Origin: a virus
Lineage: Duplodnaviria; Caudoviricetes
Length of the DNA stretch: 64,000 nt
IMG/VR virus record: IMGVR_UViG_3300021399_000098
Strand: one strand, 5' to 3'
Numbering within the stretch: the first letter of the stretch is position 1; each line of letters opens with the position of its first letter. This document shows, one piece after another, positions 36,831 to 62,249 of this stretch. Both the position numbers and the translations under genes were made by a program. The notes beneath the pieces were generated by a model that was given only the letters and a program-made list of their open reading frames with translations, had not been told where the DNA came from and did not search any database.

Positions 36831-37568
36831 ATGGAAAAAAACGAGCTAGATATACAGTTATTGAAAGCAGGTGTTAGAAGACCTGATTTGGAAATCATTA
36901 AAGAAGGAAAAACAGGTCATGGCATCCTAATTGAACACGATGGATATATGTACATCAAAGAAAACAGACAAATTAAAGAAAGTCTTGAAAACGGTGAGTG
37001 GCATGTTCCATACCCATTCATTGTTGACGCTGTGTTCCAAAAATTTGGAATAAAAAACGCAAACGGAAGAATATATCCTGAAGAAGTTTTGAAAAAACAA
37101 GTTGAATTATATCAACAGAAAATTGATGAAAGAAGAGCAATAGGTGAGTTAAATCACCCAGCAGAGTCAACAATTGACCTTGATAGAATTGCAATCAATA
37201 TCATAGAGCTTCATTGGGAAGGCAGAACACTAGTTGGAAAACTTGAAATAAACACTTCATATGGCTTCAGAAAACATGGAATAGTTTCAACTCGCGGAGA
37301 CCAAATGGCCAATTTGCTACTCAATGGAATAAAGATAGGAGTATCTTCTAGAGGTGTCGGTTCTGTAGAGCAAAAATTAGGACAATATATCGTTGGTGAC
37401 GATTTTGAACTAATCTGTTGGGATGTTGTTAGTGACCCTTCAACTCCAGGTGCTTACGTTGGACAACCAGAGGAATTGCAACAGTATGTTGAAAATGACA
37501 CAACAAACAAAGGAAAATCAGCCATCAATGAAAAAATAAATAAGATTAAAAGCATACTTAATTCATGA
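36831..37568 (+). CDS. prohead maturation protease (T4 gp21-like)
   Basis: NANGRIYP, GELNHP, GVSSRGVGS and DVVSDPSTPGA. Confidence 0.93.
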   Translation: MEKNELDIQLLKAGVRRPDLEIIKEGKTGHGILIEHDGYMYIKENRQIKESLENGEWHVPYPFIVDAVFQKFGIKNANGRIYPEEVLKKQVELYQQKIDERRAIGELNHPAESTIDLDRIAINIIELHWEGRTLVGKLEINTSYGFRKHGIVSTRGDQMANLLLNGIKIGVSSRGVGSVEQKLGQYIVGDDFELICWDVVSDPSTPGAYVGQPEELQQYVENDTTNKGKSAINEKINKIKSILNS

Positions 37569-38918: not shown

Positions 38919-39296
38919 ATGAAAAAGATTATAAGATTAACAGAATCTGATTTACATAGGATTATTAAGAATTCAGTATCTAGGATATTAAAAGAAGATA
39001 TTCTAGGAAATGACTGGCATCAAGGTGATGATAATTCAGTCATGAACAACTATGAGCCATTTGATGGCCAGATTGATAGATATGAGGCTGAGAATGAATT
39101 CAGAAATCAGCACGATTGGGGAGCAGAGGGAGAAGAGCAATTTGACCCAACACATTACAACCAAGACGGCAACGTACTAGGTTGGAATGATGATGAAGCA
39201 GAAGGGTATGAAGAAGACCCAGATTGGTATAGGAATGATGTAAATCCGATTAACGATAGTCCGTCAGATGGAGATTTATATCATGGTACGTTGTAA
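38919..39296 (+). CDS. putative internal head protein (LTESDLH motif) with an acidic payload
   Basis: MKKIIRLTESDLHRIIKNSVSRILKE followed by an Asp/Glu-rich region. Confidence 0.6.
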   Translation: MKKIIRLTESDLHRIIKNSVSRILKEDILGNDWHQGDDNSVMNNYEPFDGQIDRYEAENEFRNQHDWGAEGEEQFDPTHYNQDGNVLGWNDDEAEGYEEDPDWYRNDVNPINDSPSDGDLYHGTL

Positions 39297-39596: not shown

Positions 39597-40529
39597 TTAA
39601 TCATCCATTAAAATATCTCTTATTTCAAGTAACTTTGCGATGTCCTTTACAATTGATTCTTTGTTGAACTTCTGTTCTTCCAACTGTGACTTCAATTGCT
39701 TCAACTCTGTATTTTCAGCGTCTTCCTTCAACATCTGGTTTATCTTTTCAATGCATTCGTTTTTGAACTTGTTGAAAAGCTTTTCCTTTCTCTTCTCTGC
39801 GATTGGACTTCTGAAATCAGTTATCTGCTGAACGAATGACATTTCAGACTCAGTAAGAGTGTCCTTCAACTTGCTTTCAAAGTTCTTTACAAGCTTGCTA
39901 GGGTCTACTGACTCATTTATAACATCACCCTTGTGCTTGTTCATGTATTTACATATGTTGTTGGTGCTCTCAGCCAATGTTGCAACGTTAGCTACAGAAT
40001 TCTTCTTGGTGAAGATGTTATGACCAGACTCATATAAGGTTCTCATTTCATCGTTGATAAAATCAGTAGGAATAATATTGTTCTCTTTAAGTATGTTCCT
40101 AAACTTTGCGTTTGACTTCAACAATGTTTCCCTATTGATTGTAGGTACAACTGCTTCATATAGTTTCTGTGCCAACTCTTCTGGCTTTAATACATCAGCC
40201 ATCTTACCACGATAGTTTCTTATTGCATTGTAATAGTTAAACTGACTTGACAAATTGCTGTCTTCTTTGATTAGCTTTACAACATCCCTAACGACTTTCT
40301 TGTCGTTTTTGAACAATTCTGGAAGTCTTTCTTCAAATATATGGTTCAAGATACCAAAGTTATTTGTATTAAGTTCAGCAGTAAGTTCATCCTCATGTCT
40401 GCTGTCTTCAACTGCTTCGTCTAGCATCTCTTTTACATAATCATAAGCCTTGTAATCGCCTTTCTTAAGTGCTTCGGTCATTATGCTTATGTAGTTTGAA
40501 AACTCTTCTTGATACTTGTTATTTTTCAT
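39597..40529 (-). CDS. putative prohead core protein
   Basis: Helical 310-aa ORF after the portal; INES and LTES motifs; TATTTATA at 40563-40570. Confidence 0.55.
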   Translation of the reverse strand: MKNNKYQEEFSNYISIMTEALKKGDYKAYDYVKEMLDEAVEDSRHEDELTAELNTNNFGILNHIFEERLPELFKNDKKVVRDVVKLIKEDSNLSSQFNYYNAIRNYRGKMADVLKPEELAQKLYEAVVPTINRETLLKSNAKFRNILKENNIIPTDFINDEMRTLYESGHNIFTKKNSVANVATLAESTNNICKYMNKHKGDVINESVDPSKLVKNFESKLKDTLTESEMSFVQQITDFRSPIAEKRKEKLFNKFKNECIEKINQMLKEDAENTELKQLKSQLEEQKFNKESIVKDIAKLLEIRDILMDD

Positions 40530-40617: not shown

Positions 40618-42648
40618 TTATTTTTCATCAACGAATTTGCTTAATGCATTTATCATTTTATCAAACTCCTCATTTATTAGCAAAGATTCACTATCATATA
40701 TATCAGCTCTCTTATATTCAGTTTCTTTTGGGCTTCTTTTATGCTCTGTGAGAACGTTCATATATTTTTTAAAGTAATCTTCAGTTATTAGTGGTTTGTT
40801 CTTGCTTACAGACTCCATCGGTGCGTTAGGGTCATTTCCCATATCGGCTGTTGGCATTGAGCCTTCTGTGCCAGCGATGTCTCCTGTATCGTCACTTCCT
40901 GGAGAGCCAAGTCCATCGAGTTCACCTCCTGCGTCCATTGGTGGTGGAGCACCGCCTCCTGGCATGCCTCCTGCCATGCCACCTCCGCCCATTCCACCGT
41001 CAGCACCCATGCCGCCTTGTCCTTGCTGGTCATCCATATACTCAGCTCCAGGCTCTCCATAGATTCTGTCAACGGTGTCGAAGATACCAGTCTTCTTGAT
41101 GATTTGAGTGGTCTTTTCAAGTTCAGCAGCGATACCCTTCTCAAGACGTATCTCTTCAAGGTTCTCCTTAATTTCTTTCTCAGACCATTTCATAATCTGC
41201 TTCAATGCACGAGTCTGTGACATAACTGGTAGGCCATTACCTGGGTCTGACACAGCGTCTCTAACGGCATCAATCTTCTTCTGCATGTTTTCAATCTCAA
41301 GTTGTTCTGCTTGTGTTGATGGGTTATTCATTGACAACGTGAAGTTGGTCAATTCATCATTGAAGCCTAACAAGAACAAGTGTATTGATGCGACCTTAGT
41401 CAATTCCATCAAGAACGCTTGCTGTATTCTGTTCACCGTTCTAGTGAAACGAATGTCCATAAGTGCTAGGTTTTTACCTTCACCAACACCCTCTTCAAAG
41501 TTCAAGAATGACTTAGGAATTCTAAGTGCTGTTAACACCTTATTCTGCACGAACTTGATGTCATCCAATGCCGTCATGTTCTGAGCAGCAGAAAGCGTGT
41601 CAATAGGTGTTGGCGCATTTTCATCACGAACAGGTATGAAAATATCTTGGTCAACTGACAATATGTTCTTACGAAGGTCAACTTGGCCAGTCATTGGGTC
41701 GATAATTGGAGTTCTCTTAAACTCGTTGGCAATTCTTTCAACATAAGCACCTACGTCAGCATCGTCAATAGCACCAACGAATATCTTATATACACGCCTT
41801 TCAATAGAACGCTCAAGACGATAAATAAGCATCATGTCTTCCATCAAGGAAAGCATACGCCAGTGTCTACGAGCAGCGTTAAGGTAACTCACTCCATAAG
41901 GAAGGTATAGTGAATTGGTAAGTAAACGGAAATGAGCAACTTGCCAGTCACGGAATGGAATTTGAGATTGATTATCATCCAACCAAATGAATTGGGTTGA
42001 CATATCAGCATCATCTTTTGTTATGCCGTTAACTGCTATTGAAGCGCCTGCTCCATAAGGATTTTGTATTCCGTTTTCAATTCTCTCTACATTAAAAACT
42101 GGAAGCTGTTTCCAACTTTTAACACCATTCTTATGGTCAATGTCCAATAACATAAACTGATTACCATACTTACACATCGCACGGATAATCATTTGACCAG
42201 TAAGCTGAATATTAAGTCTGTTTACAAACAAATCCTCCAATATGTTTTTAATACGGTCTGATTTTGAATAAACATTAACGACCATACCCTTATCGTTGGT
42301 TATGGTACTCTCTTCAGAAACAATATCCAATGCTGCGCCTATCTCTGGAAACGCATCCATCAAGTCAGCATCACGATACATAAGTTTAACGTTGTTCAGA
42401 CCAGCATATGCAGTAACGGATAGATTAACGTTTGCCTTAATCCATCTGTTTTTTAAAAACTTATCTTGTTGAAGCTCTAGTTTTTTTTCAATGTAATCCT
42501 CTTTGTCAGTTGTCTTATACAAGACTTCTTTGTCAGTATGGCTCATGTCATATGTATTGACATGAGGAGTGACAATATCTTGCGGATTCCACTGGCCTCT
42601 TATGGCTTTATCTAGGGCTTGAAATACTGTTGTACTTTTCTTTGCCAT
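40618..42648 (-). CDS. portal protein (T4 gp20-like)
   Basis: PEIGAALDIVSEE, EDMMLIYRLERSIERRVYKI, DDIKFVQNK..ALRIP and DIRFTRTVNRIQ. Confidence 0.93.
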   Translation of the reverse strand: MAKKSTTVFQALDKAIRGQWNPQDIVTPHVNTYDMSHTDKEVLYKTTDKEDYIEKKLELQQDKFLKNRWIKANVNLSVTAYAGLNNVKLMYRDADLMDAFPEIGAALDIVSEESTITNDKGMVVNVYSKSDRIKNILEDLFVNRLNIQLTGQMIIRAMCKYGNQFMLLDIDHKNGVKSWKQLPVFNVERIENGIQNPYGAGASIAVNGITKDDADMSTQFIWLDDNQSQIPFRDWQVAHFRLLTNSLYLPYGVSYLNAARRHWRMLSLMEDMMLIYRLERSIERRVYKIFVGAIDDADVGAYVERIANEFKRTPIIDPMTGQVDLRKNILSVDQDIFIPVRDENAPTPIDTLSAAQNMTALDDIKFVQNKVLTALRIPKSFLNFEEGVGEGKNLALMDIRFTRTVNRIQQAFLMELTKVASIHLFLLGFNDELTNFTLSMNNPSTQAEQLEIENMQKKIDAVRDAVSDPGNGLPVMSQTRALKQIMKWSEKEIKENLEEIRLEKGIAAELEKTTQIIKKTGIFDTVDRIYGEPGAEYMDDQQGQGGMGADGGMGGGGMAGGMPGGGAPPPMDAGGELDGLGSPGSDDTGDIAGTEGSMPTADMGNDPNAPMESVSKNKPLITEDYFKKYMNVLTEHKRSPKETEYKRADIYDSESLLINEEFDKMINALSKFVDEK

Positions 42649-42701: not shown

Positions 42702-44579
42702 TTATTTAACCCCACCCATAAGCCACATATACGTTCCATTTGGAACATTATCATATTTATGTAGATTTTTTCCTGAATAGAATGGCAAACCAACAGAAGG
42801 TGAAATAGCAGAGCCATAATTGATTCTAGGCTTGTTCATCCTAATTGCATTTGTCATCATATAGGCATTAAGAATTGATTTGTCCTTATTTACGGTATTC
42901 TGTATTCTATTGACGGTAAACTGCATTACAAATAATCCCATTGCCAATGCAGTAAGGGTATCGTCATGCGCACCGTCTTGGTGGTCTATTCTAGCATTTT
43001 CACCCTTGAATATCCATGTCTCCAATTCGTTGATAACCCTAGCAGAACGAATCTTAAATTCATCATTACGAACAAGTCCTGCAAAGTTAGCCAATACTGG
43101 ATAACGGTTTCCTTGGAAATGAAAACCAGGAAGTTTATCTGTATATCCGTCATAGTTTTTAGTTGACCTCTGTACTGTATATGTCTTTTGGTTTGAATCT
43201 TCATAGTAAAGGTTTTTGTACCCCATTTGAAGCATCGTCAATATACAAGCGTCACCTTGGCCACCAGTACAGTCAACTACAACAAACGCATTATTGTACA
43301 ACGTGCCATACTGATAGCACAGCGCACCGATGTCATCACCTAGCTTTTTACCAACATATTCCGCAACTTGTTCTATGATAGGCATTCCGTTTTCATCCCT
43401 ACCATCCATATCAATTATCTCTATGGCAGTTCTATCGGCTGACACACCTCTAGATGGGTCGCAAGCTAGAATGTATCTATGCCCTTCAATTGGTTTCTTC
43501 CAGAACCAAGTCTCTTCAACCAATGGGTCAGCGAAATCCTCAAGCGGCTCTCTGTTGTTAAGTTTCTCTTGCATTTCAATAAACTCTGGAGCAACAACGT
43601 TGTCAGCAGAACCCATGAACGATACGTCTAGCTCTTGGGCTATTTTCATTGAGTCGTTATTGAACGACTTACACATATCTTCATACCAAGGTGCTGTAGG
43701 CTTCCATCCCTTATGCTCTAATTCTGCCCACCTTTCCTCATCATACTTAACGCTACCTTCATCATCTATGATTGGGTCTTGGTCGTACATCCACTCACCT
43801 GTGTCTTCATTTTTCTTTTTCCACACAAGGAACTTGTTGAATCGTGGGTCTTGATACCAACGGAACTGAACAGCCACAAAGTTGTTTTCACGGCTTAAGG
43901 CTTGTCTGTATGTGTTGTAATACAACTCATCCCTACCATTAGGCGTAGACACCATCACAGTCTTGGAATTTGGGTTTGAGGCCATTGTAGCGGCAGCAGT
44001 GGTAAATACTGCCACACCCTCTTCAATGAACGCAGCCTCGTCCAATATAAGCACAGATACAGCAGAAATACCACGAGCAGCATTAGGGCCGCTAGCACGT
44101 GCAATCACTCTGCAACCGTTGAAAAGTTTTAACTCACCTTTTGCGTCTTTAACGAATATTGATTTTATGTTTTTTTCTGAATTTGGGTCAGGACTAAAAT
44201 ACTCACTTCCCCAAATCCATCTTGGAACTTGCTCAAGAAAGTCACGGATTTTAATAATAATTTCTTGTGCTTGTTCAAGTTTGTTTGCAATACACAACAC
44301 AGTCTCTGGGGAATCTTTTGATGCAAACGCGCACTGAGCAGTTACCCACGCGCTTGATAATGTTGTGATACCACACTGTCTAGGCTTAATTGCAACCACA
44401 TTTCTGTTTTCAGCCAATGCCCTCAAGAAAGCCCTCTGTCTAGGAAAACAATGGAATTGGGTCTTCTTACCTTTAATTGCATTGAAAGTAGATAGGTACT
44501 TTTCAATGAACGCTATCCTAGATTTGTCCGCATAACACATTGCATAGTCTTGCTGGATTTGTTTGTAATCGTATATCAT
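42702..44579 (-). CDS. terminase large subunit (T4 gp17-like)
   Basis: KPRQCGITT, LILDEAAF, VSTPNG, nuclease CDPSRG and HDD. Confidence 0.95.
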   Translation of the reverse strand: MIYDYKQIQQDYAMCYADKSRIAFIEKYLSTFNAIKGKKTQFHCFPRQRAFLRALAENRNVVAIKPRQCGITTLSSAWVTAQCAFASKDSPETVLCIANKLEQAQEIIIKIRDFLEQVPRWIWGSEYFSPDPNSEKNIKSIFVKDAKGELKLFNGCRVIARASGPNAARGISAVSVLILDEAAFIEEGVAVFTTAAATMASNPNSKTVMVSTPNGRDELYYNTYRQALSRENNFVAVQFRWYQDPRFNKFLVWKKKNEDTGEWMYDQDPIIDDEGSVKYDEERWAELEHKGWKPTAPWYEDMCKSFNNDSMKIAQELDVSFMGSADNVVAPEFIEMQEKLNNREPLEDFADPLVEETWFWKKPIEGHRYILACDPSRGVSADRTAIEIIDMDGRDENGMPIIEQVAEYVGKKLGDDIGALCYQYGTLYNNAFVVVDCTGGQGDACILTMLQMGYKNLYYEDSNQKTYTVQRSTKNYDGYTDKLPGFHFQGNRYPVLANFAGLVRNDEFKIRSARVINELETWIFKGENARIDHQDGAHDDTLTALAMGLFVMQFTVNRIQNTVNKDKSILNAYMMTNAIRMNKPRINYGSAISPSVGLPFYSGKNLHKYDNVPNGTYMWLMGGVK

Positions 44580-44691: not shown

Positions 44692-45912
44692 TCATTCATC
44701 TTCTTCAATTACATCACCATCACCTTCCTCTGAATCTAGTTCATATCCATTGGTTTCAGCACTAGTGAAATATGAGTCCTTAATTAAAGATTTGTCAACA
44801 TTTCTAGCATTTATTCTATTTGTAAACTGTTGGTATCCGTTGTCATATTCGGCTTCCTTCATCAGTTCTCCGATTATTTCGTTTCCCTTTTCAGTTGATG
44901 CTAGTATTTCCTTAACCACATCGTTGAACTCATCTATGGAAATCCTGACAAATGACGTGAACATATAAGGAATCATGTTAGTGTCTTCAACCCTTCCGAA
45001 AATCATATCCCAAAGGCCAACGCCAAGCCTTAAATCCCAAGGCTCTGCAAGCACGAAATCAGCTTTCTTTATGATATGCATTGCATTTTTCTTATCCTTT
45101 GGAAGTCCATGTGATGAGAACAATTCAAACATACCTCTTATTGCCTCTTGGAACAACAAAGGAAATATAATGCCTTGAACCTTTATTGTTGTTTTTGAAT
45201 CACCGACACCCAAATGTGTTTCAACGTAAGAACCTTGCATTGGCTTGTCATCTGTCATTTTTTCCTTTTTAATGAAAAGCAAATAGTCATTGATTATCCT
45301 TATTCTTCTGTACAATCTAGGAAGTTCAGGATTTATCCTATCAATGTCGCTTATATAAAGTCCTTCAACCTTTGCATATGTGTATGAAGCACCTTGTATT
45401 AAAGCATCTATAAATCTTCTCTTTTCAATTGCCTTATTTGAAAACTCTATATCCTTTATGTCCTTAAACGTGTAATTTAAATCCACATTTGACTCTGGTC
45501 TCAATCTAATTGCACTCTTAAACTTGATTCTGTCAACCAACTTAAAAATCAAGTTAATACTTTCCTCTGGAATTGCAAACAACTTGTTCAATGCATTTTC
45601 GCATATCTTTTCCAACGAATCCCTGACAGGCGTTTCCAATTCTTTTGCCCTTTTCAGAAGTTCGCTAAGTTCAGTCATAAGCTCATCCTCAGTACAAGAC
45701 CCCAATCCGATAGACTCAATTTCATCGCACACCTCATTATACCTTGTTTTCAACAAAGTATAATCAAACGGATAGTCACCAACATTAGGGAACGCGCCAT
45801 TATCACCTAATGATGTACAGTGGGCTTTAACCATCTTATACAAAAACCTAGGCAATAGTCTTCCGTTTATAACACTAGATACAGAATTTTCGTTTATGTA
45901 TATTTTTTTCAT
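44692..45912 (-). CDS. hypothetical late protein (N-terminal KKIYINE motif)
   Basis: 406-aa ORF in the head cluster. Confidence 0.6.
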   Translation of the reverse strand: MKKIYINENSVSSVINGRLLPRFLYKMVKAHCTSLGDNGAFPNVGDYPFDYTLLKTRYNEVCDEIESIGLGSCTEDELMTELSELLKRAKELETPVRDSLEKICENALNKLFAIPEESINLIFKLVDRIKFKSAIRLRPESNVDLNYTFKDIKDIEFSNKAIEKRRFIDALIQGASYTYAKVEGLYISDIDRINPELPRLYRRIRIINDYLLFIKKEKMTDDKPMQGSYVETHLGVGDSKTTIKVQGIIFPLLFQEAIRGMFELFSSHGLPKDKKNAMHIIKKADFVLAEPWDLRLGVGLWDMIFGRVEDTNMIPYMFTSFVRISIDEFNDVVKEILASTEKGNEIIGELMKEAEYDNGYQQFTNRINARNVDKSLIKDSYFTSAETNGYELDSEEGDGDVIEEDE

Positions 45913-46466: not shown

Positions 46467-46994
46467 TTAGAATGGAGATATAAATGGACTCACCATATCT
46501 CTGTATGCCCTAGGCAACTTTTTCTGTGGCCTTGTTGTACCTACCCTATCATCTAGCACATCATTTATCGTTTCATCAATAATTGATTTCATATTTACTC
46601 TAGATTCCATTGGCATGTCACCTTGTGGTATTTCACCACCTTCTGAGTTATCTGCCATACTTTTTGCATACTTTGTCACAGCTGCCTTGTCTTCAATTGA
46701 AAGTCCGTTGATGATACCCATTAGTTCATCATCTTCACCTCCCATTGGCTCTTCATCTCCCATTGGAGGTTCTTCACCCATTGCGTTAGGGTCTTCTCCA
46801 CCCATATCGTCTGGAGCACCACCCATAGGGTCAGTCATTTGGCCTTCTCCACCCATGTCATCAGCTCCCATTGGTGGCATTGGAGCATTATCTAAATCAC
46901 CCATGCCATCCACATCGCCACCTAGGGTGCTGTCAGGTATTTCAAGTTTCGTTGGTCTTTCTTCAAAAAAAGCTTCCGTTAACTTACTTGTTTC
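46467..46994 (-). CDS. acidic Gly/Met/Pro-rich ORF, probably the frameshift extension of 46984..48711
   Basis: No ATG or leader near the junction; joined to the upstream ORF through an A10 run. Confidence 0.55.
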   Translation of the reverse strand, partial: ETSKLTEAFFEERPTKLEIPDSTLGGDVDGMGDLDNAPMPPMGADDMGGEGQMTDPMGGAPDDMGGEDPNAMGEEPPMGDEEPMGGEDDELMGIINGLSIEDKAAVTKYAKSMADNSEGGEIPQGDMPMESRVNMKSIIDETINDVLDDRVGTTRPQKKLPRAYRDMVSPFISPF

Positions 46995-48711
46995 TTTTTT
47001 TTTTAAGACGGTCAAATGCTTCAGCAATTGCATTGTCAATTGAATCTGGGTCAATTTCGAATGGAGCACCATCACCAATTCTCTCACCGTAAGGCATGTC
47101 GTTCTTAACAGAATCATCATTCATATCATAATAATCTGGGAACTCTTGCAAATCCTTTGGAGGTAATGTCATCACTTTCTTCTGATATGCTGGGTGCTTT
47201 CCGAAATCATCCAACTTGTTCATGTTTCCTTGTGGAACACGACCTGCATCCTTAAATGGAGTCATACCCTCTTCGTTCATTCTTTGCTTGCGCATTGCAT
47301 TTCTAAATGCTCTCGTCTCGAAAATCTGAACACCATTTCTACGTCTGCTTTCCATTGGCATTTCATCATCATCCTCAAATTCATCATTACCCATTTCATC
47401 ATCTGGACCGAATCCTTCCTCGTCATCCATTGGCTCTTCATCACCGAATTCATTCTCTTCCTCGTCACCGAAGAGGTCATCGTCATCATATTCAGCATCG
47501 TCAACTGGAGCCTCTCCAACACCAAGCTTTGCAGCGATTTGTGTCAAAAGGTCTTCAATTGCCTCAACACGCGACTCAAGGTCATCCTCATAGATGTCAT
47601 CGTCTTCAACTTCCTCATCACCGAACTCATCATCTGCTGGTTCTTCATCACCAAGGTCATCACCCATTGCATCAGCATCAATTGGTTCACCTTCGCCCAT
47701 GTCATCGCCCATTTCGTCACCTACTGGTTCACCTTCGCCCATGTCATCACCCATGTCATCGCCAAGGTCATCCTCTGCTCCAAAATCGTCAATAGCTTCG
47801 TCCAATTGCTTACCCTTCTCAGCATCAAATGGTTTGTTGTTGTCATCAGATGGGCCTTCACCTACACCAACTGCTGGCTTATTCTGGTCATCAGTATCGT
47901 GCATTGAAGTTCCATGATTCTCTACAACACCGTTCTTCATTTCACCAGTCTTGGTTACTTTCTTGTCACCGTCATCGATGTTTCTTGCTGTTGCATCATC
48001 GAAAGGTGCGCTGTCACCAATTTCAGTTCCATGAGACTTGTCCATATAATCCTTATCGTTACGATTCCAACCAAGAACCTTCTCGCTTGTTTCCTTAACA
48101 ACACCTTCTCCCATAGTAGTAGCTTCAGGAGCGTCATCAACTGAAATAGCTCCACCACATTCCGTTTCTACCTTTTCGATGTTTCCCTTTTCAAGTTTTT
48201 CTATTCCTTTCATATCCTTTGATGCGCAAACGCCATTTGCACAGTCCTTACCTTTCTTCTCTGCAATCATCATTGCATTCTTCATAATCTGGCGTTCACG
48301 AAGGATTTCTTTCTTCATCTTGTCAGTTGCTTCGATGACAACATTTTCCTTCTTGTCCAAATCCCAAGAATTGATGTTGAAGTCAGTCTTGCTAGCAGCC
48401 TCCTTCAAAGACATCATCTTTAGGTCAAATTGCTTCTGAGCGTTTGCGAAAGAAGTATACTCATTGTCTTTTCTATTTCTGAATCCTCCAATGTAATTGA
48501 AGTCTTCCTTTACTAGGTTTTGCTTGTTAGGAGCAGACTTGATGTAGTATTTTGCACCCTCGCGGATAATAGCATATACTTTTCCATCAGCAGCAAGCTT
48601 CTGGTTCTCTACAGAACTGTAAGGAGCTTTTTTGTTTTCAGTCTGAAGACCATAACCCATTAAAGTCTTCATTCTTGCCAACTGCTCGTTTGTATTCATT
48701 TTATTGTTCAT
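46984..48711 (-). CDS. acidic scaffold / core-like protein
   Basis: Asp/Glu/Met-rich; shares KPF...KGKQL.E with the scaffold protein; TATTTATA at 48749-48756. Confidence 0.6.
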   Translation of the reverse strand: MNNKMNTNEQLARMKTLMGYGLQTENKKAPYSSVENQKLAADGKVYAIIREGAKYYIKSAPNKQNLVKEDFNYIGGFRNRKDNEYTSFANAQKQFDLKMMSLKEAASKTDFNINSWDLDKKENVVIEATDKMKKEILRERQIMKNAMMIAEKKGKDCANGVCASKDMKGIEKLEKGNIEKVETECGGAISVDDAPEATTMGEGVVKETSEKVLGWNRNDKDYMDKSHGTEIGDSAPFDDATARNIDDGDKKVTKTGEMKNGVVENHGTSMHDTDDQNKPAVGVGEGPSDDNNKPFDAEKGKQLDEAIDDFGAEDDLGDDMGDDMGEGEPVGDEMGDDMGEGEPIDADAMGDDLGDEEPADDEFGDEEVEDDDIYEDDLESRVEAIEDLLTQIAAKLGVGEAPVDDAEYDDDDLFGDEEENEFGDEEPMDDEEGFGPDDEMGNDEFEDDDEMPMESRRRNGVQIFETRAFRNAMRKQRMNEEGMTPFKDAGRVPQGNMNKLDDFGKHPAYQKKVMTLPPKDLQEFPDYYDMNDDSVKNDMPYGERIGDGAPFEIDPDSIDNAIAEAFDRLKKKRNK

Positions 48712-48784: not shown

Positions 48785-51700
48785 TTAATAATTTCTAACG
48801 TCATCATAAGTGCCCCTTACATTATCAAAGCCCCTATTATCGAATTGCATGTTTCTTCTGATGTTTGGAGTAAACTTGTCTAACGCCCTAATATAAACAA
48901 CGCTCTTAGGTTTCATCTTAATTTCATCCCATTGGACGCAGAGGCAATAATTATACCCTATAAGGTTTGATAGCCAAGTGTCCGTAAAGCACTTGTAAAG
49001 CTTTCCTTGCTTGTTATCTTCCCTTGACTGCATAAGTACGCCATTGTTGCAAATAAAGTCCTTCAGAACCTTTCTTTCGGTTTCCCAACGCTTTTTATAT
49101 GGGTTTGAATTACTGCTTCCGTCTAATGCGAACTCTTCCTTTAGAACTGTGATATATTTCTTTACAGATTCATCAACGTGAATGTTTTTTTCCTTAAACC
49201 ACTCAATGTTTTTTTGCATGTATTTCGCAATTAATGCTTCTTTGTCTTTAACAATAGCATGATTAAGCAATTCAAAATTAAACAATACGTATTCAGTATC
49301 AAACTCAAAACCATCAATACCTAATGATAGGTATAATTTTGACAACTGTTTATCAGGGTCTCCATCAGAATACCACAATAAAGGTATGTGGTTATTTAAG
49401 TAGAAATAAGTTAAATCATTTTCATCACTTTCCGAAATAACTTGAATGATGGCATTTAGCAAATCTTTGTCAACAGTATTATCATATTCTTCAATCATTG
49501 AAGAAATTCTGTTATAGTCTCTGTTGTTTTTTGCATTATCAAGTTCATTTTGTAACAAATAATATTCTTTTTGTTTGTCCAAGAAAATATTATTGTCTTT
49601 GTTAATCTTATCCCTTAAATTAATAATGTCAAAACCATTTATATTTGCTATTATATAATGTCCATCTGTATAAGTGGTATATTTTTCGCATTTATATGCG
49701 TGGGCTGTAAAATATATTCCATAGCCGTATGTTCCTCTGCTTCCACCTTTTATCCTTGTTGGGTCAACAGTATCCCACTCTGTTCCATTTCCATCTTCTC
49801 CAGTGCCATGAAAAACATATCCATCTTCTGCCATTTCGCCAATAACCTTATATCTAGCCATTTGGTTATTCCTGAAAATGTCGTATCTAGCACCTTCCGT
49901 TACAGACTCTGTAATTGAATTCGTCTTGTCATAAACAACATTAGAAATCTTCCAAAGACGGTCAAGATAACCTGTTCTGCGAAGTATCTTATACACGATG
50001 TTTCCGCTTCCGCTTTCACCATGCTTCTCAAGACTGCTCTTGCGCATTTCCTTTACCTTTTTCCAAAGATAATCTGCATCATCACCAATCTGTTCTATTT
50101 CATAAGAATCATCCGTAGCTGCAAGAGCGTCATACATATCGTCAATGATTGTCATGATTTTTGCTGCCTTGTCCTTAATTGGAAACTTGTTCAACCTTAT
50201 TGGTTTAATATCATCAGGATTTGGCTCTTTTATCCAATCATTTTCCTCCAAGTCATAAATACCATTGGATTCAGGCATTTCTCCAACATTCTGAACATAA
50301 AGCTCAACTTGGTATCCCATTATCTGAAGACCTTTATGCTCATTATTCCATTCATTTTTCTTTGCATCTAAATAATCACGGACGAACTCTGTCTTTTCAT
50401 CAATTTCATCAAAATCTACGATAAGATGTAGGTCAATGTCAGAATATTGAGACCAATTGAAATTACAGATTGAACCTGTTAATATTATGCCACTAGGCTC
50501 AACCCAAGTCAAATTTACATATTTCCAAAAATCGTCTGCAATGTCTAATAGCTTAAGCCTAATTCTTGAATCTAGTTTGCCATCTGGTTTCCATATATTT
50601 GGAACTAATTCATGTTTTTTCTTGAATGAAGACAAATCTATTTCAGAACTATCTACCTCAAAATCAAAATTCTCTTTAATTGATTCTAATTGATTTTCAT
50701 GAATTAATATCTTCTTATTTTTATTCTTTGATTCACTTAACGATAAATTACCGCTAGTGTCAAGTTTATATACATTACCATTAAGTTTAACCCTACCAAA
50801 ACCTTCTTTGAAATCGCCAACATAGTCAAACCATTGGTCACTTAAAAACCTACCTTCTTGATTGATGTAATTCCACTTGCCATTAAGTTTAACCCTACCA
50901 AAACCTTCACTGAAGAAATAGTCAGCATAATCAAACCATTGGTCACTTAAAAACTTACATTCTTGAGTAATATAATTATACTTGTTATTAAGTTTAACCA
51001 TAGCAAAACCTCCATAGAAATTGCCAGCATCGTCAAACCATTGGCCGCTTAAAAGTTTACCTTTTTGATTGATGAAATTCCACTTGTCATTAAGCTCAAC
51101 CGCAGCAAAACCTTCATTGAAATTGTAAACATCGTCAAACTCAAACCATTGGTTACTTAAAAACTTACATTCTTGATTAATGAAATTCCACTTGCCATTA
51201 AGTTGAACCCTAGCAAAACCTTCACGGAATTCGTCACCATAGTCAAACCATTGGTTACTTAAAAACTTACATTCTTGAGTAATATAATTATGCTTGTTAT
51301 TAAGTTTAACCATAGCAAAACCTCCATAGAAATCGCCAACATAGTCAAACCATTGGTCACTTAAAAACCTACCTTCTTGGTTGATGAAATTATACTTATC
51401 ATTAAGATTAACCCTAGCAAAACCTTCACGGAAATAGTCAACACTATCAAATATAGTACGAGGGTCTTCTCCATTTCCTAGACGTTGTATAGCATTAGTT
51501 AATAAGTCTTTCCACTTGTTGTTTGGCTTAAACACATCAAAGAAATTCATACCAATTACTTGGCTCACTTCCTTTGCGTTCATAATACTGTCATCACCAC
51601 CATTGTCATGATTCCAACGACAAGTGCAAGTGTTCAGCATACCATTTTCATTAACACTCACAGCTATCATAGAAAGTCCATACTCATCCAATGGACAGCC

Positions 51701-53788
51701 TTCAGATGGCACTTCCTCAACATTCTCAAAGCCATTTCTTAAGCAAAAATAGAACTGGTTTATACCATCACTAGTGTAGGAATCGAACATATTCTCATCG
51801 TGCGTCACACACCAAGATACGTAATCACCGTATTCCTCTGCTTGTTCAAATGAATCAATCCTTACAATCTCATAATCAGAAGGGGTGTTAAACACCATTT
51901 GGCCAATTTCAGCCTTCTCAGCCTCAAGATTGTCACTCATTGCTTTTGAAAACCTTTGAACGAGTTCTTGACAAGACATTCCATTTAAGTTTCTATCATA
52001 CTCATTGATATGAGCATCTGAAGCAACAAGTTTCAACGTTGAATTAAGGTTGCCAATATCATTGGCAGTCCTTAGTTCACCGTCACAGAACATCCTTGTC
52101 ACGCCAAGGATGAACTTACCTCCTTGTGGCGTTCTTAACATTGGTATATCATTTCTGAGCTTAATCCTTATAAATTCATCAGCTTCTTGCTCATTATAGT
52201 TAAGCCTTTGCATCACAAGCTTTTTTGCTGCTGCAATAGACTTTGATTCTTGTGACTCTATAATTAAATGAGAATTATTCATGTTTTTATTTTCATATTG
52301 CACGTTTCCCATTGGTTTTATTCCATCCTCATAATATCTCCTTATATCTGCAACAACAGCTTGAGGTTTAGCATCTGAGTATGAAACTGAATGCAAGGTA
52401 TTTCCTTTGTCATCGGTAAAATCTATGTCAACGTCAACAGCCTTTCTCACAAAATCCTTTATTGCGTAGAATTGTTCATTTGTAGGCTCTTTCGTCATAT
52501 CGAGTATTCCGCTATTGACATCGCATCTAATTGCTCCATGATTCATAAAATCAACAACGTAGTTATAACGGTACTCGTCATCCCATATTTTTATCCCATT
52601 CTGTTTATAGACAGCTGCTATTTGTCTATGGTCTGTTTCTCTATATCCATCACTTCCAAAATTCAACAATTTCCCATCTGGAAGAATATATCCAGCTTGG
52701 TTTAATCTGCTAGTTAAGCCAAACTCTTCGATGGCTAAAGAAATAATATCATAAATTTCTTTTGGTTGTTCTAAATCCTTTTCGCTTTCTTCTTTGTTAT
52801 TTTCGTTAGTCCAAAGTTTAGTAATTTTATGAAGTCTATCACTTAATGCTGTATATATCTTAATATCTTTTGGGTCTACACTTATTTCTGGGTGTGTCTT
52901 TTTCATCCAAGAGCTTATATACCAACCATCAGTACCATATTTTTCTTTTCCTTGCTTCAAAAAATATTGTAGGTCGTAATTTACCTTATTAAACAAATCG
53001 TCATATTTATTTTCTACAATTTGTTTTTTAGAGTTTTTTGATTCATAATATTCATTTCCTTGCGGTATTATACCTTCTGAATAAAATCTAGCAGATTCAT
53101 TGATGTGATAACCGTTACCGCCTACTGGTGGATTATCACTTTCAGCGCCAATTTCATATTCATCAACCTCTGGTGCTGCTTCGTTCACACTTTCATTAAT
53201 GTTTTCCCCAAGTATGTTCTTCATAATCATTGGGAAATACTTCTCCCACTTACGAAACAGCAAATTAGGGAACATTGTTTCATTGTCTTGCACCTCATCC
53301 ATGAAATAATCGAACAAATTTCCAACTCTTTCTAAAGGGTAGCTTTCACCTTCCTTCACATACCTTTCATAATTTCTTTTAATTGCACCGCTTGACATTC
53401 CACAAATCTTTTCTATCTTAAGGTTGTATGCAGAAATATCTAACTCGTCATCCTTTGAAACAGCTTCGGAGTTGTTCATCATGTTGAACTTCTCTTCAAA
53501 CTCATTACTTGGAACTTCTATTGAAAACAATGCCCCTCTGTTGAAATTGTCTCCTTCTTTCAACGAAAACCAATTCATACCATAAGTCTCACCATTTTGT
53601 CTTCCACGCTTTGCAGACATTATACCACTTTCCATGATTATTAGCAAAGCATCAACAGTAGTTCCATGATACAATTTGACAGAAACGTCATTATGGCTGA
53701 CACCATCAGTGCCAACCATAACTTCGTTTAATCTATTTTTAATCATTATTAAACTGTCTTCACTAAATCTAACAGTCTTACTCATCAA
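48785..53788 (-). CDS. 1667-aa polyvalent polyprotein: ART-like, GYILPDG domain, SWC domain, WG repeats, nucleotidyltransferase, second ART-like
   Basis: LYHGT; AGYILPDG..DHR; SWCVT; WG repeats; TGS..NFNW..YSDIDLH; VFHGT..YGYGIYFT..EYVLF. Confidence 0.7.
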   Translation of the reverse strand: MMSKTVRFSEDSLIMIKNRLNEVMVGTDGVSHNDVSVKLYHGTTVDALLIIMESGIMSAKRGRQNGETYGMNWFSLKEGDNFNRGALFSIEVPSNEFEEKFNMMNNSEAVSKDDELDISAYNLKIEKICGMSSGAIKRNYERYVKEGESYPLERVGNLFDYFMDEVQDNETMFPNLLFRKWEKYFPMIMKNILGENINESVNEAAPEVDEYEIGAESDNPPVGGNGYHINESARFYSEGIIPQGNEYYESKNSKKQIVENKYDDLFNKVNYDLQYFLKQGKEKYGTDGWYISSWMKKTHPEISVDPKDIKIYTALSDRLHKITKLWTNENNKEESEKDLEQPKEIYDIISLAIEEFGLTSRLNQAGYILPDGKLLNFGSDGYRETDHRQIAAVYKQNGIKIWDDEYRYNYVVDFMNHGAIRCDVNSGILDMTKEPTNEQFYAIKDFVRKAVDVDIDFTDDKGNTLHSVSYSDAKPQAVVADIRRYYEDGIKPMGNVQYENKNMNNSHLIIESQESKSIAAAKKLVMQRLNYNEQEADEFIRIKLRNDIPMLRTPQGGKFILGVTRMFCDGELRTANDIGNLNSTLKLVASDAHINEYDRNLNGMSCQELVQRFSKAMSDNLEAEKAEIGQMVFNTPSDYEIVRIDSFEQAEEYGDYVSWCVTHDENMFDSYTSDGINQFYFCLRNGFENVEEVPSEGCPLDEYGLSMIAVSVNENGMLNTCTCRWNHDNGGDDSIMNAKEVSQVIGMNFFDVFKPNNKWKDLLTNAIQRLGNGEDPRTIFDSVDYFREGFARVNLNDKYNFINQEGRFLSDQWFDYVGDFYGGFAMVKLNNKHNYITQECKFLSNQWFDYGDEFREGFARVQLNGKWNFINQECKFLSNQWFEFDDVYNFNEGFAAVELNDKWNFINQKGKLLSGQWFDDAGNFYGGFAMVKLNNKYNYITQECKFLSDQWFDYADYFFSEGFGRVKLNGKWNYINQEGRFLSDQWFDYVGDFKEGFGRVKLNGNVYKLDTSGNLSLSESKNKNKKILIHENQLESIKENFDFEVDSSEIDLSSFKKKHELVPNIWKPDGKLDSRIRLKLLDIADDFWKYVNLTWVEPSGIILTGSICNFNWSQYSDIDLHLIVDFDEIDEKTEFVRDYLDAKKNEWNNEHKGLQIMGYQVELYVQNVGEMPESNGIYDLEENDWIKEPNPDDIKPIRLNKFPIKDKAAKIMTIIDDMYDALAATDDSYEIEQIGDDADYLWKKVKEMRKSSLEKHGESGSGNIVYKILRRTGYLDRLWKISNVVYDKTNSITESVTEGARYDIFRNNQMARYKVIGEMAEDGYVFHGTGEDGNGTEWDTVDPTRIKGGSRGTYGYGIYFTAHAYKCEKYTTYTDGHYIIANINGFDIINLRDKINKDNNIFLDKQKEYYLLQNELDNAKNNRDYNRISSMIEEYDNTVDKDLLNAIIQVISESDENDLTYFYLNNHIPLLWYSDGDPDKQLSKLYLSLGIDGFEFDTEYVLFNFELLNHAIVKDKEALIAKYMQKNIEWFKEKNIHVDESVKKYITVLKEEFALDGSSNSNPYKKRWETERKVLKDFICNNGVLMQSREDNKQGKLYKCFTDTWLSNLIGYNYCLCVQWDEIKMKPKSVVYIRALDKFTPNIRRNMQFDNRGFDNVRGTYDDVRNY
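50780..51450 (-). repeat. WG-type beta repeats (about 34 aa / 102 bp, roughly 6.5 copies)
   Basis: F.EGFA.V.LN.K.N.I.QE..FLS.QWFD units; nucleotide repeat aaaccattggt(c/t)acttaaaaac. Confidence 0.9.
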
Positions 53789-53808: not shown

Positions 53809-54129
53809 TTAGTTTTCACAATCATATGCCCACTGGTATGTACCTTTACCGCCACACTTACAAATCTGCTGTCTAAGGTCAGTATAGTTTGCACCGTTCT
53901 CACCAACAAACTGAGGAACTTCCTTGTACTTGTTAGCATTTTCAGTTGGAAGAGCTTCTTGGTATCCAGTGATGTTCCAATCATTAGATGAGAATGTCTT
54001 CATGCCATTGTCACTGTAGCCATCCTTATCCAATGCAGTCTTATATGAGTCTACGTCTGTATAAAGCAATTGGTTATCCATATCATAACCATAACCTTCA
54101 TACATGTAATCTAATATGTTAGTAACCAT
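53809..54129 (-). CDS. hypothetical late protein
   Basis: TATTTATA at 54163-54170; first gene of the polyprotein operon. Confidence 0.55.
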   Translation of the reverse strand: MVTNILDYMYEGYGYDMDNQLLYTDVDSYKTALDKDGYSDNGMKTFSSNDWNITGYQEALPTENANKYKEVPQFVGENGANYTDLRQQICKCGGKGTYQWAYDCEN

Positions 54130-54207
54130 AATTTAAAAATATTTTATTTTGTTATTTTTTTCTATAAATATTACCCAATAAAAAAAGGTACTACAAACGT
54201 AGCACCT

Positions 54208-58611: not shown

Positions 58612-61128
58612 ATGAGCAAATTTAAAGAAAGTGATTACACATTGGAGTTTAACGAAGTCATGGAATACATGACAGACACGCTTTTCAATGAGTTTCCAAC
58701 AGATGTTCTTACATTGGAATATTTGATTTTGGCAATATTGGACAACAGAAGCTGTCACGCAAACATGATTCTTGACAACTGCTTGATGTCGAACAACATA
58801 GAAGAACTTAGGAAAATATACGGTTCTGTGTTGGAAAAGCATGTAAAGCCGCAGCTCAAGACAAATAAGGTGATATTCAGTGAAGACTTGATTAAGGCTT
58901 TAGATTGTTCTAAAATCGAAGCAGATAAGTTATCAAATAAGCCAATAGGAACTGAACACATATTGTTGGCAATATTAAACAAAGAAAACAAGTTCAAAGA
59001 ATTTGAAATATTTGAGAAATTTCGCCTTGAGTATGATTTCATTTTTGGTAAATGTTCAATGTCCAAACAAACTGAAAACATTGAAACGAATGAAAAAGCG
59101 AGTCCAAAGCTAAAGGCCAAAAGAATAAGCAAAACAAAGCAAAATAACGAAATACCATTGAAAAGTCAAGTTAATACCAAAACAATATCTACCTCAGAAT
59201 CAAATAATTTCATCGGACAATACACAACAAGCCTAAACAAGCTTGCTAGAGAAGGTAAAATAGATGAAATTGTAGGTAGGAAACAAGAGATTGAAGAAAT
59301 TATCAAAGTCCTTGCTAGAAGAAAGAAAAACAATGCCGTTCTAGTTGGAGAGGGTGGATGTGGAAAAACTGCAATTGTATATGGAATCGCAAATATGATT
59401 GAAGAGAACAAAGTTCCTGAAGTATTGGAAGGAAAGGAAATAATAATGCTGAATCCTATGGCACTTGTCAGTGGAACTCACTTCAGGGGAATGTTTGAGG
59501 AAAGAATCAACGGACTTTTCAATGAAATTAAAAAGACTGACAAATATATTCTTTTCATAGATGACATTCACACGGTGCTAAAAAGTGGCAGCAAAGAAAA
59601 AGATGCAGATATTAGCGGAATGATTGGAGAGGCACTTTCTGAGGGTAGCATCAAAATTATAGGAACTACCACTTTCAAAGAATATAGGAATTCAATTGAA
59701 AGCAACTCTTCAATTTCTAGAAAGCTTCAAAAGATAGTGATTGAACCAGCTTCAATAGAAGAGGCAGTTAAGATTCTAACGAACAACAAGAGATATTATG
59801 AAGACTATCACAGTGTGGTCTATACTCAGAAATCGATTCTAAAGGCTGTTGAATTGGCTGACAGATACATTACGGATAGAACACTACCAGACTCAGCATT
59901 TGACATTATTGACCTTGCAGGTGCAAACACGTCATTAATTGACAGAGAACCAATGCAAGTTCAAAATATGAAAAAAAGACTTAGGGAAATAGAAATAGAA
60001 AAAGCAAATGCCCTAAACAATGGTGACTTTGAAAAAATAGATTCATTGGATGCTGAAAACAACGTTCTTTCTTCTGACCTTGTTGATTACAAGAGAAACA
60101 GTAGTAAAACTCCGTTTAAGACAATAACAATCACTGAAACAGAAATTTCAAATGTTGTATCTGAAATCACAAAGATACCTGTAAGCAAACTTTCATCAAG
60201 TGAAAAAAATAAAATCGCGCACATTGACGAAATATTAAAGAAAAGTATCGTAGGACAAGATGAAGCAATTGATAGCGTGTGTAGGGTTATTAAGCGCAAT
60301 AAGGTTGGACTTGGTGATAAGACAAAAACAATGGCAAATATCCTAATGGTAGGCCCAACTGGTAGTGGTAAAACCCTCATCGCAAAGAAACTTGCAGAAG
60401 AGATTTTTGGTGATGAAAAAGCACTTATCAGAATCGACATGTCTGAATATTCTGAAAAGAACTCTGTTTCAAAGCTAACAGGTGCGGCACCAGGATATAT
60501 TGGCTATGAGAATGGTGGACAACTCACAGAAGCCGTCAAGCACAAGCAGCATTGCGTTCTTCTACTCGATGAGATTGAAAAGGCTGACCAAGAGGTTTAT
60601 AACGTGTTCCTACAGTTGTTTGATGAAGGTAGGCTTACAGATAGTGCAGGACAGATTGTAAACTTCAAAAATGTAATTGTTCTTATGACATCAAACATTG
60701 GTGCTAGAAAGGCAGCAGAACTTGGAAATGGACTAGGTTTCGTAAGCAATGAGGAAACAAATAAGAAATCCATAATAGACAAGGAGTTGAAGAAGAAATT
60801 TACACCAGAGTTTATCAACAGAATAGACCAAATAGTATATTTTAATTCATTAACAGATGATAATTTAAAGAATATAGTTAAATTAGAAATTAATAAGTTT
60901 AATAATAGACTTAATAATATAGAATATAAAATAGAATATACTGACGATGTAGTAGAATATATACACGCTAAAGCAATTAAGAACAAGGAAATGGGAGCAA
61001 GACCAATTATCAGGCTTATCCAAACTGACATAGAAGACAAGATTACGGAACTTATGCTGGAAAACGAATATCATCCAAATTACGTATTCCATGCTTCATG
61101 CAGTAATAACGAAATTGTAATACAATAA
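58612..61128 (+). CDS. clpC: ClpC-like AAA+ chaperone / protease ATPase
   Basis: Clp N-domain repeats, GEGGCGKT, GPTGSGKT, RIDMSEY, GYIGY and an LGF loop. Confidence 0.9.
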   Translation: MSKFKESDYTLEFNEVMEYMTDTLFNEFPTDVLTLEYLILAILDNRSCHANMILDNCLMSNNIEELRKIYGSVLEKHVKPQLKTNKVIFSEDLIKALDCSKIEADKLSNKPIGTEHILLAILNKENKFKEFEIFEKFRLEYDFIFGKCSMSKQTENIETNEKASPKLKAKRISKTKQNNEIPLKSQVNTKTISTSESNNFIGQYTTSLNKLAREGKIDEIVGRKQEIEEIIKVLARRKKNNAVLVGEGGCGKTAIVYGIANMIEENKVPEVLEGKEIIMLNPMALVSGTHFRGMFEERINGLFNEIKKTDKYILFIDDIHTVLKSGSKEKDADISGMIGEALSEGSIKIIGTTTFKEYRNSIESNSSISRKLQKIVIEPASIEEAVKILTNNKRYYEDYHSVVYTQKSILKAVELADRYITDRTLPDSAFDIIDLAGANTSLIDREPMQVQNMKKRLREIEIEKANALNNGDFEKIDSLDAENNVLSSDLVDYKRNSSKTPFKTITITETEISNVVSEITKIPVSKLSSSEKNKIAHIDEILKKSIVGQDEAIDSVCRVIKRNKVGLGDKTKTMANILMVGPTGSGKTLIAKKLAEEIFGDEKALIRIDMSEYSEKNSVSKLTGAAPGYIGYENGGQLTEAVKHKQHCVLLLDEIEKADQEVYNVFLQLFDEGRLTDSAGQIVNFKNVIVLMTSNIGARKAAELGNGLGFVSNEETNKKSIIDKELKKKFTPEFINRIDQIVYFNSLTDDNLKNIVKLEINKFNNRLNNIEYKIEYTDDVVEYIHAKAIKNKEMGARPIIRLIQTDIEDKITELMLENEYHPNYVFHASCSNNEIVIQ

Positions 61129-61895: not shown

Positions 61896-62249
61896 ATGAA
61901 AAGAATCATAATGTCTGAAAACGGATTAAATAAGATAAACAGTATCATATCTGAAAACTCAAAATATGATGCCTACATAGCTGACGGTAAAAAATACCTT
62001 GATGCCAATTATCATACGTCAATGTTTGATAACAATGGAGATTATGTCACAACGTATGTTAAAATGAGCAATGGAATGCCTACTAGCAAAGTGGTGTGGA
62101 GGCAAGATGTATTAGACGCTTTAGATAAACATTTTTTTAAAATAATAAAAGATGAAAAGGAAAGAAAGGGCTTTATAAACCAATTGCTATCAGATTGGGA
62201 AACAAACGGTTTTAGCAAATATGGTAGCCTAAGTAACTATAATTGGTAA
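61896..62249 (+). CDS. late hypothetical protein (MKRIIMSE..IISE motif)
   Basis: TATTTATA at 61871-61878. Confidence 0.55.
   Translation: MKRIIMSENGLNKINSIISENSKYDAYIADGKKYLDANYHTSMFDNNGDYVTTYVKMSNGMPTSKVVWRQDVLDALDKHFFKIIKDEKERKGFINQLLSDWETNGFSKYGSLSNYNW

Follow-up and report, generated by a model that had tools for sequence, protein, structure and literature searches.

A mosaic polyvalent protein of a large T4-like phage, probably built as a capsid-cargo polyprotein

This report concerns a single gene on the minus strand (48785..53785; 1666 codons from ATG, plus stop) of IMG/VR record IMGVR_UViG_3300021399_000098 (Duplodnaviria; Caudoviricetes), a 64,000-nucleotide stretch of viral DNA referred to below as the window. 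As judged from sequence comparison and predicted structures, its product is a chain of six independently folding modules joined by flexible linkers, each of which holds at least one I/L/V-x-Glu motif. The protein appears best classified as a polyvalent protein sensu Iyer et al. 2017, i.e., as one of the predicted injected multi-domain proteins that Iyer, Burroughs, Anand, de Souza, and Aravind likened to viral polyproteins (PMC5512222). In our opinion, it is probably a head-cargo polyprotein whose modules the prohead protease of the phage releases in trans. Processing in trans is suggested because the protein starts with a T4-like leader, because every linker carries a site of the head-protease type, and because no embedded peptidase (zincin MPTase or assemblin-like) was found in Pfam, PHROGs, and NCBIfam scans of the protein.

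A preliminary description of this DNA had read the gene as an open reading frame (ORF) of 1667 codons. The minus-strand frame 48785..53788 is indeed open, with 1667 codons counted from a TTG at 53788, while codon 2 of this frame is an ATG (53785-53783). The true start is probably this ATG, one codon downstream, so that the protein has 1666 amino acids, because an identical 1666-aa database product (P0002, on a 401,247-bp contig) begins there and because the N-termini of relatives read M-G/S-K. Residue numbers used here follow the translation P0001 and so count the TTG codon as residue 1.

The modules are arranged as follows, with all coordinates on the minus strand and arrows marking the predicted cuts. 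A leader ending in L-N-E (residues 2-22; 53723..53785), which is the predicted capsid-targeting propeptide, precedes module 1, termed ART1 (residues 23-199; 53192..53722; LYHGT at 53660-53674, then NWFSL and FSIEVP). Linker 1 (residues 200-259; 53012..53191) consists of a conserved acidic peptide (AAPEVDEYEIG...HINE) and the orphan tail (…GIIPQGNEYYESKNSKKQIVE) of a deleted module of the DHR type. Five [LIV]xE sites fall at residues 197-259, namely INE-199, VNE-203, VDE-210, INE-231, and IVE-259; the Glu codons of INE, VNE, INE, and IVE are at 53192, 53180, 53096, and 53012. Module 2, DHR (residues 260-511; 52256..53011), has a helical N-terminal part and a GYILPDG...DHR...GAIR...EPTxEQ core. 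Module 3, which combines an SWC domain with seven WG beta repeats (residues 512-1019; 50732..52255), begins after I-I-E↓S-Q-E-S-K-S (IIE↓S site at 52256) and ends with L-S-E↓S. Linker 3 (residues 1020-1039; 50672..50731) repeats the leader within the chain (KKILIHENQLESIKE) and contains IHE and IKE sites, so that the LSE, IHE, and IKE sites together lie at 50732-50672. Module 4, a nucleotidyltransferase (NTase; residues 1040-1294; 49907..50671), has a Pol-beta fold, with the GS...SDID motif at 50426-50476, and a helical C-terminal part; it ends with N-S-I-T-E↓S, the ITE↓S and VTE↓G sites being at 49907 and 49895. Module 5, ART2 (residues 1295-1540; 49169..49906), carries the H of FHGT, the Y of GIYFT, and the acidic residue in VKDKE (motifs at 49813-49238). 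Linker 5 (residues 1541-1551; 49136..49168) lies between V-D-E↓S (49169) and L-K-E↓E (49136) and is followed by module 6, a small C-terminal alpha+beta domain (residues 1552-1667; 48788..49135). Every motif that the preliminary description had listed was found where it had been placed.

Module boundaries and the motifs that mark them

Three independent lines of evidence, drawn from sequences and models, argue that the linkers are real module boundaries. The first is provided by relatives. The 388 database proteins matching at E ≤ 1e-3 are strongly mosaic (945-2493 aa), with identity above 90% often confined to 16% of the query. The ends of BLAST segments between P0001 and 119 relatives cluster at residues 181-240, 481-520, 741-780, 1001-1040, 1281-1340, and 1501-1540, and these clusters coincide with linkers except for 741-780, which is the internal border between SWC and WG repeats and has no site. 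The second line comes from two AlphaFold models built from curated alignments (A1, residues 1017-1667; A2, residues 2-780), in which the predicted local distance difference test score (pLDDT) falls below 50 at residues 22-33, ~198-258, 497-511, 1017-1042, 1290-1300, and 1538-1565. The third is gp009 of cyanophage S-H34 (237 aa), a stand-alone NTase homologue that ends at the module end and has no leader-like linker. Thus, the earlier proposal that the domain boundaries are the xxE linkers is borne out, since homology break points, low-pLDDT segments, and motif placement concur.

The protein as a whole is not enriched in [LI]xE (22 motifs vs ~19 expected). Twelve of the 22, however, lie in or adjoin the segments with pLDDT <50, to which 21% of the modelled residues belong (p = 6e-4), as do 17 of the 31 [LIV]xE motifs (p = 4e-5); none of the 17 [LI]xD and none of the 16 [LI]xK control motifs of P0001 do so. 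The same placement is seen across the family when junctions are called blindly by all-against-all BLAST and motif density is taken within 15 residues of them. Enrichment at junctions is 2.64-fold for [LI]xE and 4.95-fold for [LIV]xE[SNAEG], while the controls are flat ([LI]xD 0.75, [LI]xQ 0.58, [FWY]xE 1.05, and the reversed motif E.[LI] 1.35). Of the non-redundant junction windows, 50% contain [LI]xE; interior windows drawn at random (200 draws) contain it in 26 ± 2%, with 32% as the highest value. Many of the called junctions are mere borders of WG repeats, and the [LI]xE excess holds regardless. It should be noted that the family sequences are related, so that junction counts are not independent events, yet the control motifs share this kinship and show nothing.

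The association also holds at individual junction types. The NTase ends in ...N-S-[I/L/V]-x-E in 96 of 103 cases, and the other seven proteins terminate just short of the site (e.g., ...NSIK, ...NSF). Starts of the C-terminal module have an [LIV]xE within eight residues upstream in 81/81 proteins, always with E at P1', and SWC starts are directly preceded by [LIVM]xE in 61/61. Analogously, DHR tails are followed by a site in 112 of 119 instances, and all 89 leaders contain one ([LIV]xE in the first 25 residues). The junction sites follow the T4 gp21 rule: Glu is invariant at P1, P3 is occupied by I or L, P2 varies (T, N, D, S, K), and S, G, A, or E stands at P1'.

The leader, the prohead protease, and the locus

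The leader is predicted to form a helix (model residues 9-24), followed by a low-pLDDT stretch, and it is common to 89 of the 120 family members, whatever architecture comes after. A hidden Markov model (HMM) of the leader scores 32.5 bits at the N-terminus of P0001 and 8.9 bits at an internal copy (residues 1027-1043), by which the "tag-like" linker previously noticed ahead of the NTase is identified as a copy of the N-terminal leader. In 34 relatives the HMM likewise detects the leader within the chain (at least 6 bits), compared with 0 in shuffled versions; most of these copies stand directly before the NTase, and some before SWC or ART-PolyVal modules.

Within the window, the leader HMM also matches the exact N-termini of three other ORFs (44692-45912, 61896-62249, and 38919-39296). 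Moreover, several small ORFs (14688-15224, minus; 37719-38042, 38622-38879, and 38919-39296, plus; also inside 28612-28872, minus) start with a near-identical related leader, K-K-x-I-R-L-T-E-S-D-L-H-x-I-V-K-E-S-V-x-R-x-L-K-E, and have two or three I/L/V-x-E sites each. The interval between the prohead protease and portal genes, which in T4 encodes the core proteins gp67 and gp68, holds three of them. These small ORFs are candidate internal head proteins with a putative capsid-targeting leader, and the distribution of the leader is what would be expected of a capsid-targeting signal.

The window belongs to a large T4-like phage. Its head genes include a major capsid protein (33030-35072, minus; Pfam Gp23), the N-terminus of which aligns with the gp23 propeptide region, a portal protein (40618-42648; Portal_T4), and TerL (42702-44579). 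A gp21-like protease, anticipated in the preliminary description, is encoded 11 kb from the polyprotein gene (36831..37568, plus; Pfam Peptidase_S77, PF03420, 6.8e-24). Alignment with T4 gp21 gives 32% identity over 182 aa (E 7e-23) and shows the GELNHP and GVSSRG regions to be conserved; this protease is the proposed processing enzyme of the polyprotein. In T4, gp21 removes capsid-targeting sequences of 10-20 residues (PMC5694885), and T4 Alt is processed by gp21, as stated in the preliminary description, with cuts at ITE-6 and LTE-619 (PMC5694885).

Expression with the head genes is suggested by a recurrent 8-mer, TATTTATA, of which the window has 26 copies (6.2 expected; maximum of 13 in shuffled sequences). 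Most head and packaging genes, including those for the major capsid protein, portal, protease, TerL, p575, and p160, are preceded at a distance of a few tens of bases by a copy on their coding strand (copies at, for example, 35109, 36688, 36807 on the plus strand, 40563, 42683, 44636, 46410, 48749, and 54163). The 8-mer is likely a late-promoter element, differing from that of T4 (TATAAATA). One box (54163-54170) precedes a 106-aa gene (53809..54170, minus, with its box) that ends 20 nt before the polyprotein start. Because this box of the head-gene type precedes the gene adjoining the polyprotein, the polyprotein gene is likely co-transcribed late with the head genes.

The surroundings of the gene are stable and its content is not. 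The order p158-ThyA-p185-p106-[polyprotein]-p575-p160-p406-TerL is kept in 23 IMG/VR loci, with three genes between the polyprotein and TerL/portal, while the polyprotein gene itself varies from ~1.5 to 6 kb across these loci. Among 120 proteins there are at least 45 architectures, counting only the modules that P0001 itself has, on a common skeleton of leader ... NTase ... C-terminal domain. The nearest relative (G001/L007, ~90% identical) is without ART1, so that its leader region is joined directly to the acidic peptide, and has two extra DHR-type modules where P0001 keeps the one orphan tail. Among relatives, whole modules are shuffled, duplicated, and deleted precisely at the linkers, in agreement with the earlier suggestion that domains are exchangeable there; module gain and loss at the linkers thus takes place on a short time scale. 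Megablast of the gene found no match among 50,697 phage records, and outside this clade tblastn detected the NTase module only (Lak phages, cyanophages, and others).

Several further features of the window were observed. The 406-aa neighbour of the polyprotein (44692-45912, minus) begins with the leader-like MKKIYINENS..., and its body (…FLYKMVKAHCTSLGDNGAFP…) is found fused N-terminally in the polyvalent relatives P0055 and P0061; it is probably a further cargo module, here a separate gene. A 217-aa frame (46467-47120, minus) overlaps the end of the 575-aa gene (46984-48711, minus), and the same overlap occurs in 23 of 23 related loci; this conserved arrangement would fit frameshifting or slippage, with an A10 run at 46995-47004. 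The Gp23-type capsid protein has 680 residues, and its conserved core starts at about residue 389. The ~290 residues between its propeptide-like N-terminus and the core have no counterpart in T4 gp23, and the propeptide region contains several I/L-x-E motifs, among which I-Y-E↓A is a candidate maturation site. The start (…YLNRWKKLGFLEGFPED…) of a 203-aa ORF at 8069-8680 (plus) resembles the capsid protein N-terminus (…NRWDQLGFTEGLPEG…), and this ORF looks like a separate copy of the capsid propeptide region within a non-structural gene block. The proteins flanking the head core genes, of 310 aa (39597-40529, minus) and 505 aa (35139-36656, minus), have the highest [LI]xE excess among the larger ORFs (14 vs 5.8 and 11 vs 5.7 expected, respectively), as would be expected if they were scaffold or core proteins that a gp21-type protease degrades. 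The phage also encodes a large Lon-like ATP-dependent protease (58612-61128, plus; phrog_4871, E 1e-206).

Directly downstream of the capsid gene lies a 558-aa HNH/homing-endonuclease-like gene (31180-32856, minus; phrog_3339, 3e-86). We infer that the phage is one of the Jug-type huge gut phages. Jug phages are huge phages of Bacteroides/Phocaeicola that are highly prevalent in human guts (PMC12880540), and the endonuclease gene agrees with the abundance of mobile endonucleases reported for them. The published description of these phages mentions neither polyvalent proteins nor ADP-ribosyltransferases nor the polyprotein gene (PMC12880540).

Properties of the individual modules

General searches were largely silent on this protein. 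Pfam detected only the WG repeats on P0001, NCBIfam detected nothing, and no PDB sequence was matched below E 0.1 by profiles of alignments A1, A2, and A3.

The NTase shows the pattern hG[GS] x9-13 D-x-[DE] plus third carboxylate of the minimal NTase fold, through a catalytic set (G1105 S1106 ... D1117 x D1119 ... E1162) that is at least 97% conserved in relatives. It matches phrog_36119, and its best Foldseek match is CdnE (6wt9; E 2.4e-4, TM 0.21), with aminoglycoside NTases, OAS, and TENT5 scoring alike. ART2 had been called ADP-ribosyltransferase (ART)-like. Pfam PF18760 itself gives no score on P0001 (E ≤ 1), but hhalign of ART2 against the PF18760-positive ART-PolyVal module of relatives yields 99.9% (E 3e-37, 182 columns), and conservation reaches at least 90% in the HG, GYG..F, and terminal E columns. 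The FHGT, GIYFT, and VKDKE motifs of ART2 fall on the matching ART-PolyVal columns. By profile comparison, ART2 is a divergent ADP-ribosyltransferase of the ART-PolyVal type, H-Y-[E/D] clade. Because their catalytic positions are conserved, both NTase and ART2 look active.

The other HGT-type module, ART1, which is present in 22 relatives, was likewise first described as ART-like. What stands of this is a lead from the ESM language model, in that the nearest named ESM Atlas clusters are viral DarT/PARP (0.92) and the Arr-ms rifampin ART (0.91); hhalign against ART-PolyVal reaches only 25%, and a Foldseek search of PDB with the multi-domain model of the N-terminal half yielded weak GNAT-like rows and nothing at E ≤ 0.001. 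The LYHGT, NWFSL, and FSIEVP motifs are suggestive, and an ART fold is possible for this module.

The DHR module has no Pfam match. Its core is modelled with pLDDT >90, and its invariants (alignment A3) are G-x-I-L, H, G-x-I-R, and P-T-x-x-Q. At E ≤ 1e-3, the DHR profile picks up 3038 cluster representatives, with lengths of 4000-6500 aa in many cases; in P0155, for example, Kinase-PolyVal and ART-PolyVal are directly followed by DHR and then by LPD23 and a metallopeptidase. Because it recurs in such giant polyvalent proteins, DHR is an unnamed polyvalent-protein domain. Its hhalign match to the C-terminal half of ART-PolyVal (96%, E 3e-9, only 13% identity) is treated with caution; that the two are neighbours in giant proteins bears on it.

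The SWC domain and the WG repeats (Pfam WG_beta_rep, 3.7e-30) are both present, as first described. They are to be counted as one module, since no site lies between them and they travel together in relatives, moving as a single unit with up to four copies per protein. Structure comparison with BFVD produced weak PcfJ-like rows for the N-terminal half, insufficient to name the SWC domain. The C-terminal module, found in 88 of 120 relatives and modelled with pLDDT 72-88, has no named relative, its ESM Atlas scores being at chance level (0.80). Of the about six effectors proposed earlier, SWC-WG and the C-terminal module have no assigned activity.

Proposed mechanism, alternatives, and significance

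The mechanism that we favour would run as follows. The leader, a short helix ending in L-x-E, would act like a T4 capsid-targeting sequence and bring the precursor into the scaffolding core of the prohead. There the activated S77 prohead protease would cut after the Glu of each linker site, freeing about six proteins of 13-58 kDa in the head, plus the leader and three or four small (acidic) peptides. At infection the freed proteins would exit with the DNA, and the ART(s) and NTase would modify host or defence targets, as T4 Alt does. Since the address and cut signals would sit in the linkers, any flanked module could be gained or lost, which would account for hypervariable gene content amid fixed neighbours.

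Like polyvalent proteins, the protein combines multiple conflict-type domains (an ART-PolyVal-type ART2, a Pol-beta NTase, WG repeats, and DHR), with ART2 matching the H-Y-D/E ART-PolyVal type and DHR found elsewhere in 4000-6500-aa proteins alongside Kinase-PolyVal, ART-PolyVal, and LPD23. The extremely mosaic architectures, the location beside portal, terminase, and virion genes that is typical of the phage-encoded type, and the predicted delivery with DNA are also shared. Iyer et al. proposed that domains are released by embedded peptidases, which are present in ~36% of polyvalent proteins and not obligatory (PMC5512222); here, unlike in that model, release is predicted to occur in trans, by a gp21-type protease at linker sites. 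Further differences are the portable T4-like leader and the absence of any match of the DHR, SWC, C-terminal, and ART1 modules to a Pfam polyvalent-domain model.

The likeness to T4 Alt and internal proteins IPI-III lies in the T4-type head genes, the S77 protease, and the short N-terminal propeptide ending in I/L-x-E; Alt, with its ITE/LTE cut sites, is also the functional precedent for a packaged and injected ADP-ribosyltransferase. The T4 cargo proteins, however, are single-module and trimmed at their ends, whereas here about six modules have sites and leader copies between them. The ARTs of Alt, ModA, and ModB are of the R-S-E kind, while both HGT-type modules here appear to be of the His-Tyr-acid kind. 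Membership of the T4 Alt family was considered and rejected, the catalytic type being wrong (no Arg-Ser-Glu active site). In the giant phages phiKZ and SPN3US, which have S80 prohead proteases, head proteins are likewise cut at several sites with P1 Glu and the fragments are ejected (PMC5694885), but the rule there is A/S-x-E, propeptides are long, and the substrates are not described as mosaic chains of swappable enzymes. Polymorphic toxin systems offer a further parallel: they too have conserved trafficking ends, variable exchangeable enzyme cassettes, and rapid turnover at a fixed locus. In the present protein, by contrast, both ends are conserved, the variable modules lie mid-chain, and delivery, of several modules at once, would be by the phage capsid.

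Several points weigh against a trans-processed head cargo. Packaging, cleavage, and ejection are predicted, and the cleavage rule is borrowed from T4 by analogy, while the protease here is only 32% identical to gp21. The [LI]xE motif is not depleted within modules (0.0103 per residue vs ~0.011 expected), so that cleavage specificity would have to come from accessibility, and its conservation at junctions is partly inherited, since family members are related. For four of the six modules, no activity has been demonstrated or can be inferred with confidence. Where NTase homologues stand alone, as in cyanophage S-H34 and Maribacter phage Molly, they are encoded among replication or unknown genes rather than head genes, and on one side the polyprotein gene adjoins thymidylate synthase.

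The first alternative, which we regard as unlikely, accepts packaging but holds that the cargo stays essentially intact, with only terminal propeptides trimmed, and is ejected whole; the internal I/L-x-E motifs would then be tolerated features of linkers. Precedents exist in the N4 vRNAP, ArdC, and TraC1 polyvalent proteins, which are transferred unprocessed (PMC5512222), and in T4 Alt, which is trimmed at its ends only (PMC5694885). The [LI]xE motifs inside folded modules would, moreover, need to stay uncut. An intact cargo leaves unexplained, however, why P3 I/L and P1 Glu are kept at every junction type while P2 drifts, why proteins that end with the NTase stop right at the site, and why internal leader copies recur. 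A protein of 190 kDa would also be hard to pass through the tail channel.

Alternatively, the product may be a late cytoplasmic multi-enzyme protein, the linker motifs of which function as recombination joints or as targets of a different protease, for example the Lon-like enzyme (58612-61128) or a host enzyme. The proximity of that protease gene, the nucleotide-metabolism genes on one flank, and the non-structural setting of NTase homologues elsewhere speak for this explanation, to which we give only a small chance. Recombination joints were rejected as an explanation of the motifs: a degenerate motif of three residues is too short for homologous recombination and is common to non-homologous junctions. 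The motif also fits the gp21 rule, and gp21-type proteases act inside proheads (PMC5694885). In addition, small proteins encoded between protease and portal have N-termini similar to the leader, and the other flank of the gene is p575-p160-p406-TerL-portal. A mainly structural or scaffolding role, as an internal-head protein of the inner-body kind with enzyme-like modules as inactive relics, is very improbable: head-core proteins of T4 and giant phages are indeed cut at many sites (PMC5694885), and the putative scaffold proteins of the window (310 and 505 aa) are rich in [LI]xE, but the catalytic residues of NTase and ART2 are strongly conserved, and hypervariable modules, including complete module loss, are unlike an essential scaffold.

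To our knowledge, the release of domains from polyvalent proteins has seldom been traced to a particular enzyme and cleavage site. The sequence of this protein yields an explicit rule, in which targeting by the leader would be followed by a gp21-type cut after the Glu of I/L-x-E in each linker, and the termini of the predicted products can be searched for in virion or gut metaproteome data. A broader proposal, which we advance tentatively and rate at somewhat less than even, is that the leader plus I/L-x-E unit is a portable "address-and-cut" cassette that turns any gene it flanks into capsid cargo.

Should this cassette exist, the head protease would mature polyvalent proteins of T4-like phages in trans, as true polyproteins, and foreign proteins might be loaded into such capsids by means of the leader and linker. 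A cargo locus of such variability would probably help to determine host takeover and counter-defence and would form a natural catalogue of injected enzymes. Under the cassette proposal, a fixed locus in some of the most abundant jumbo phages of the human gut would serve as a rapidly shuffled magazine of injected enzymes, such as ARTs, an NTase, and binding modules.

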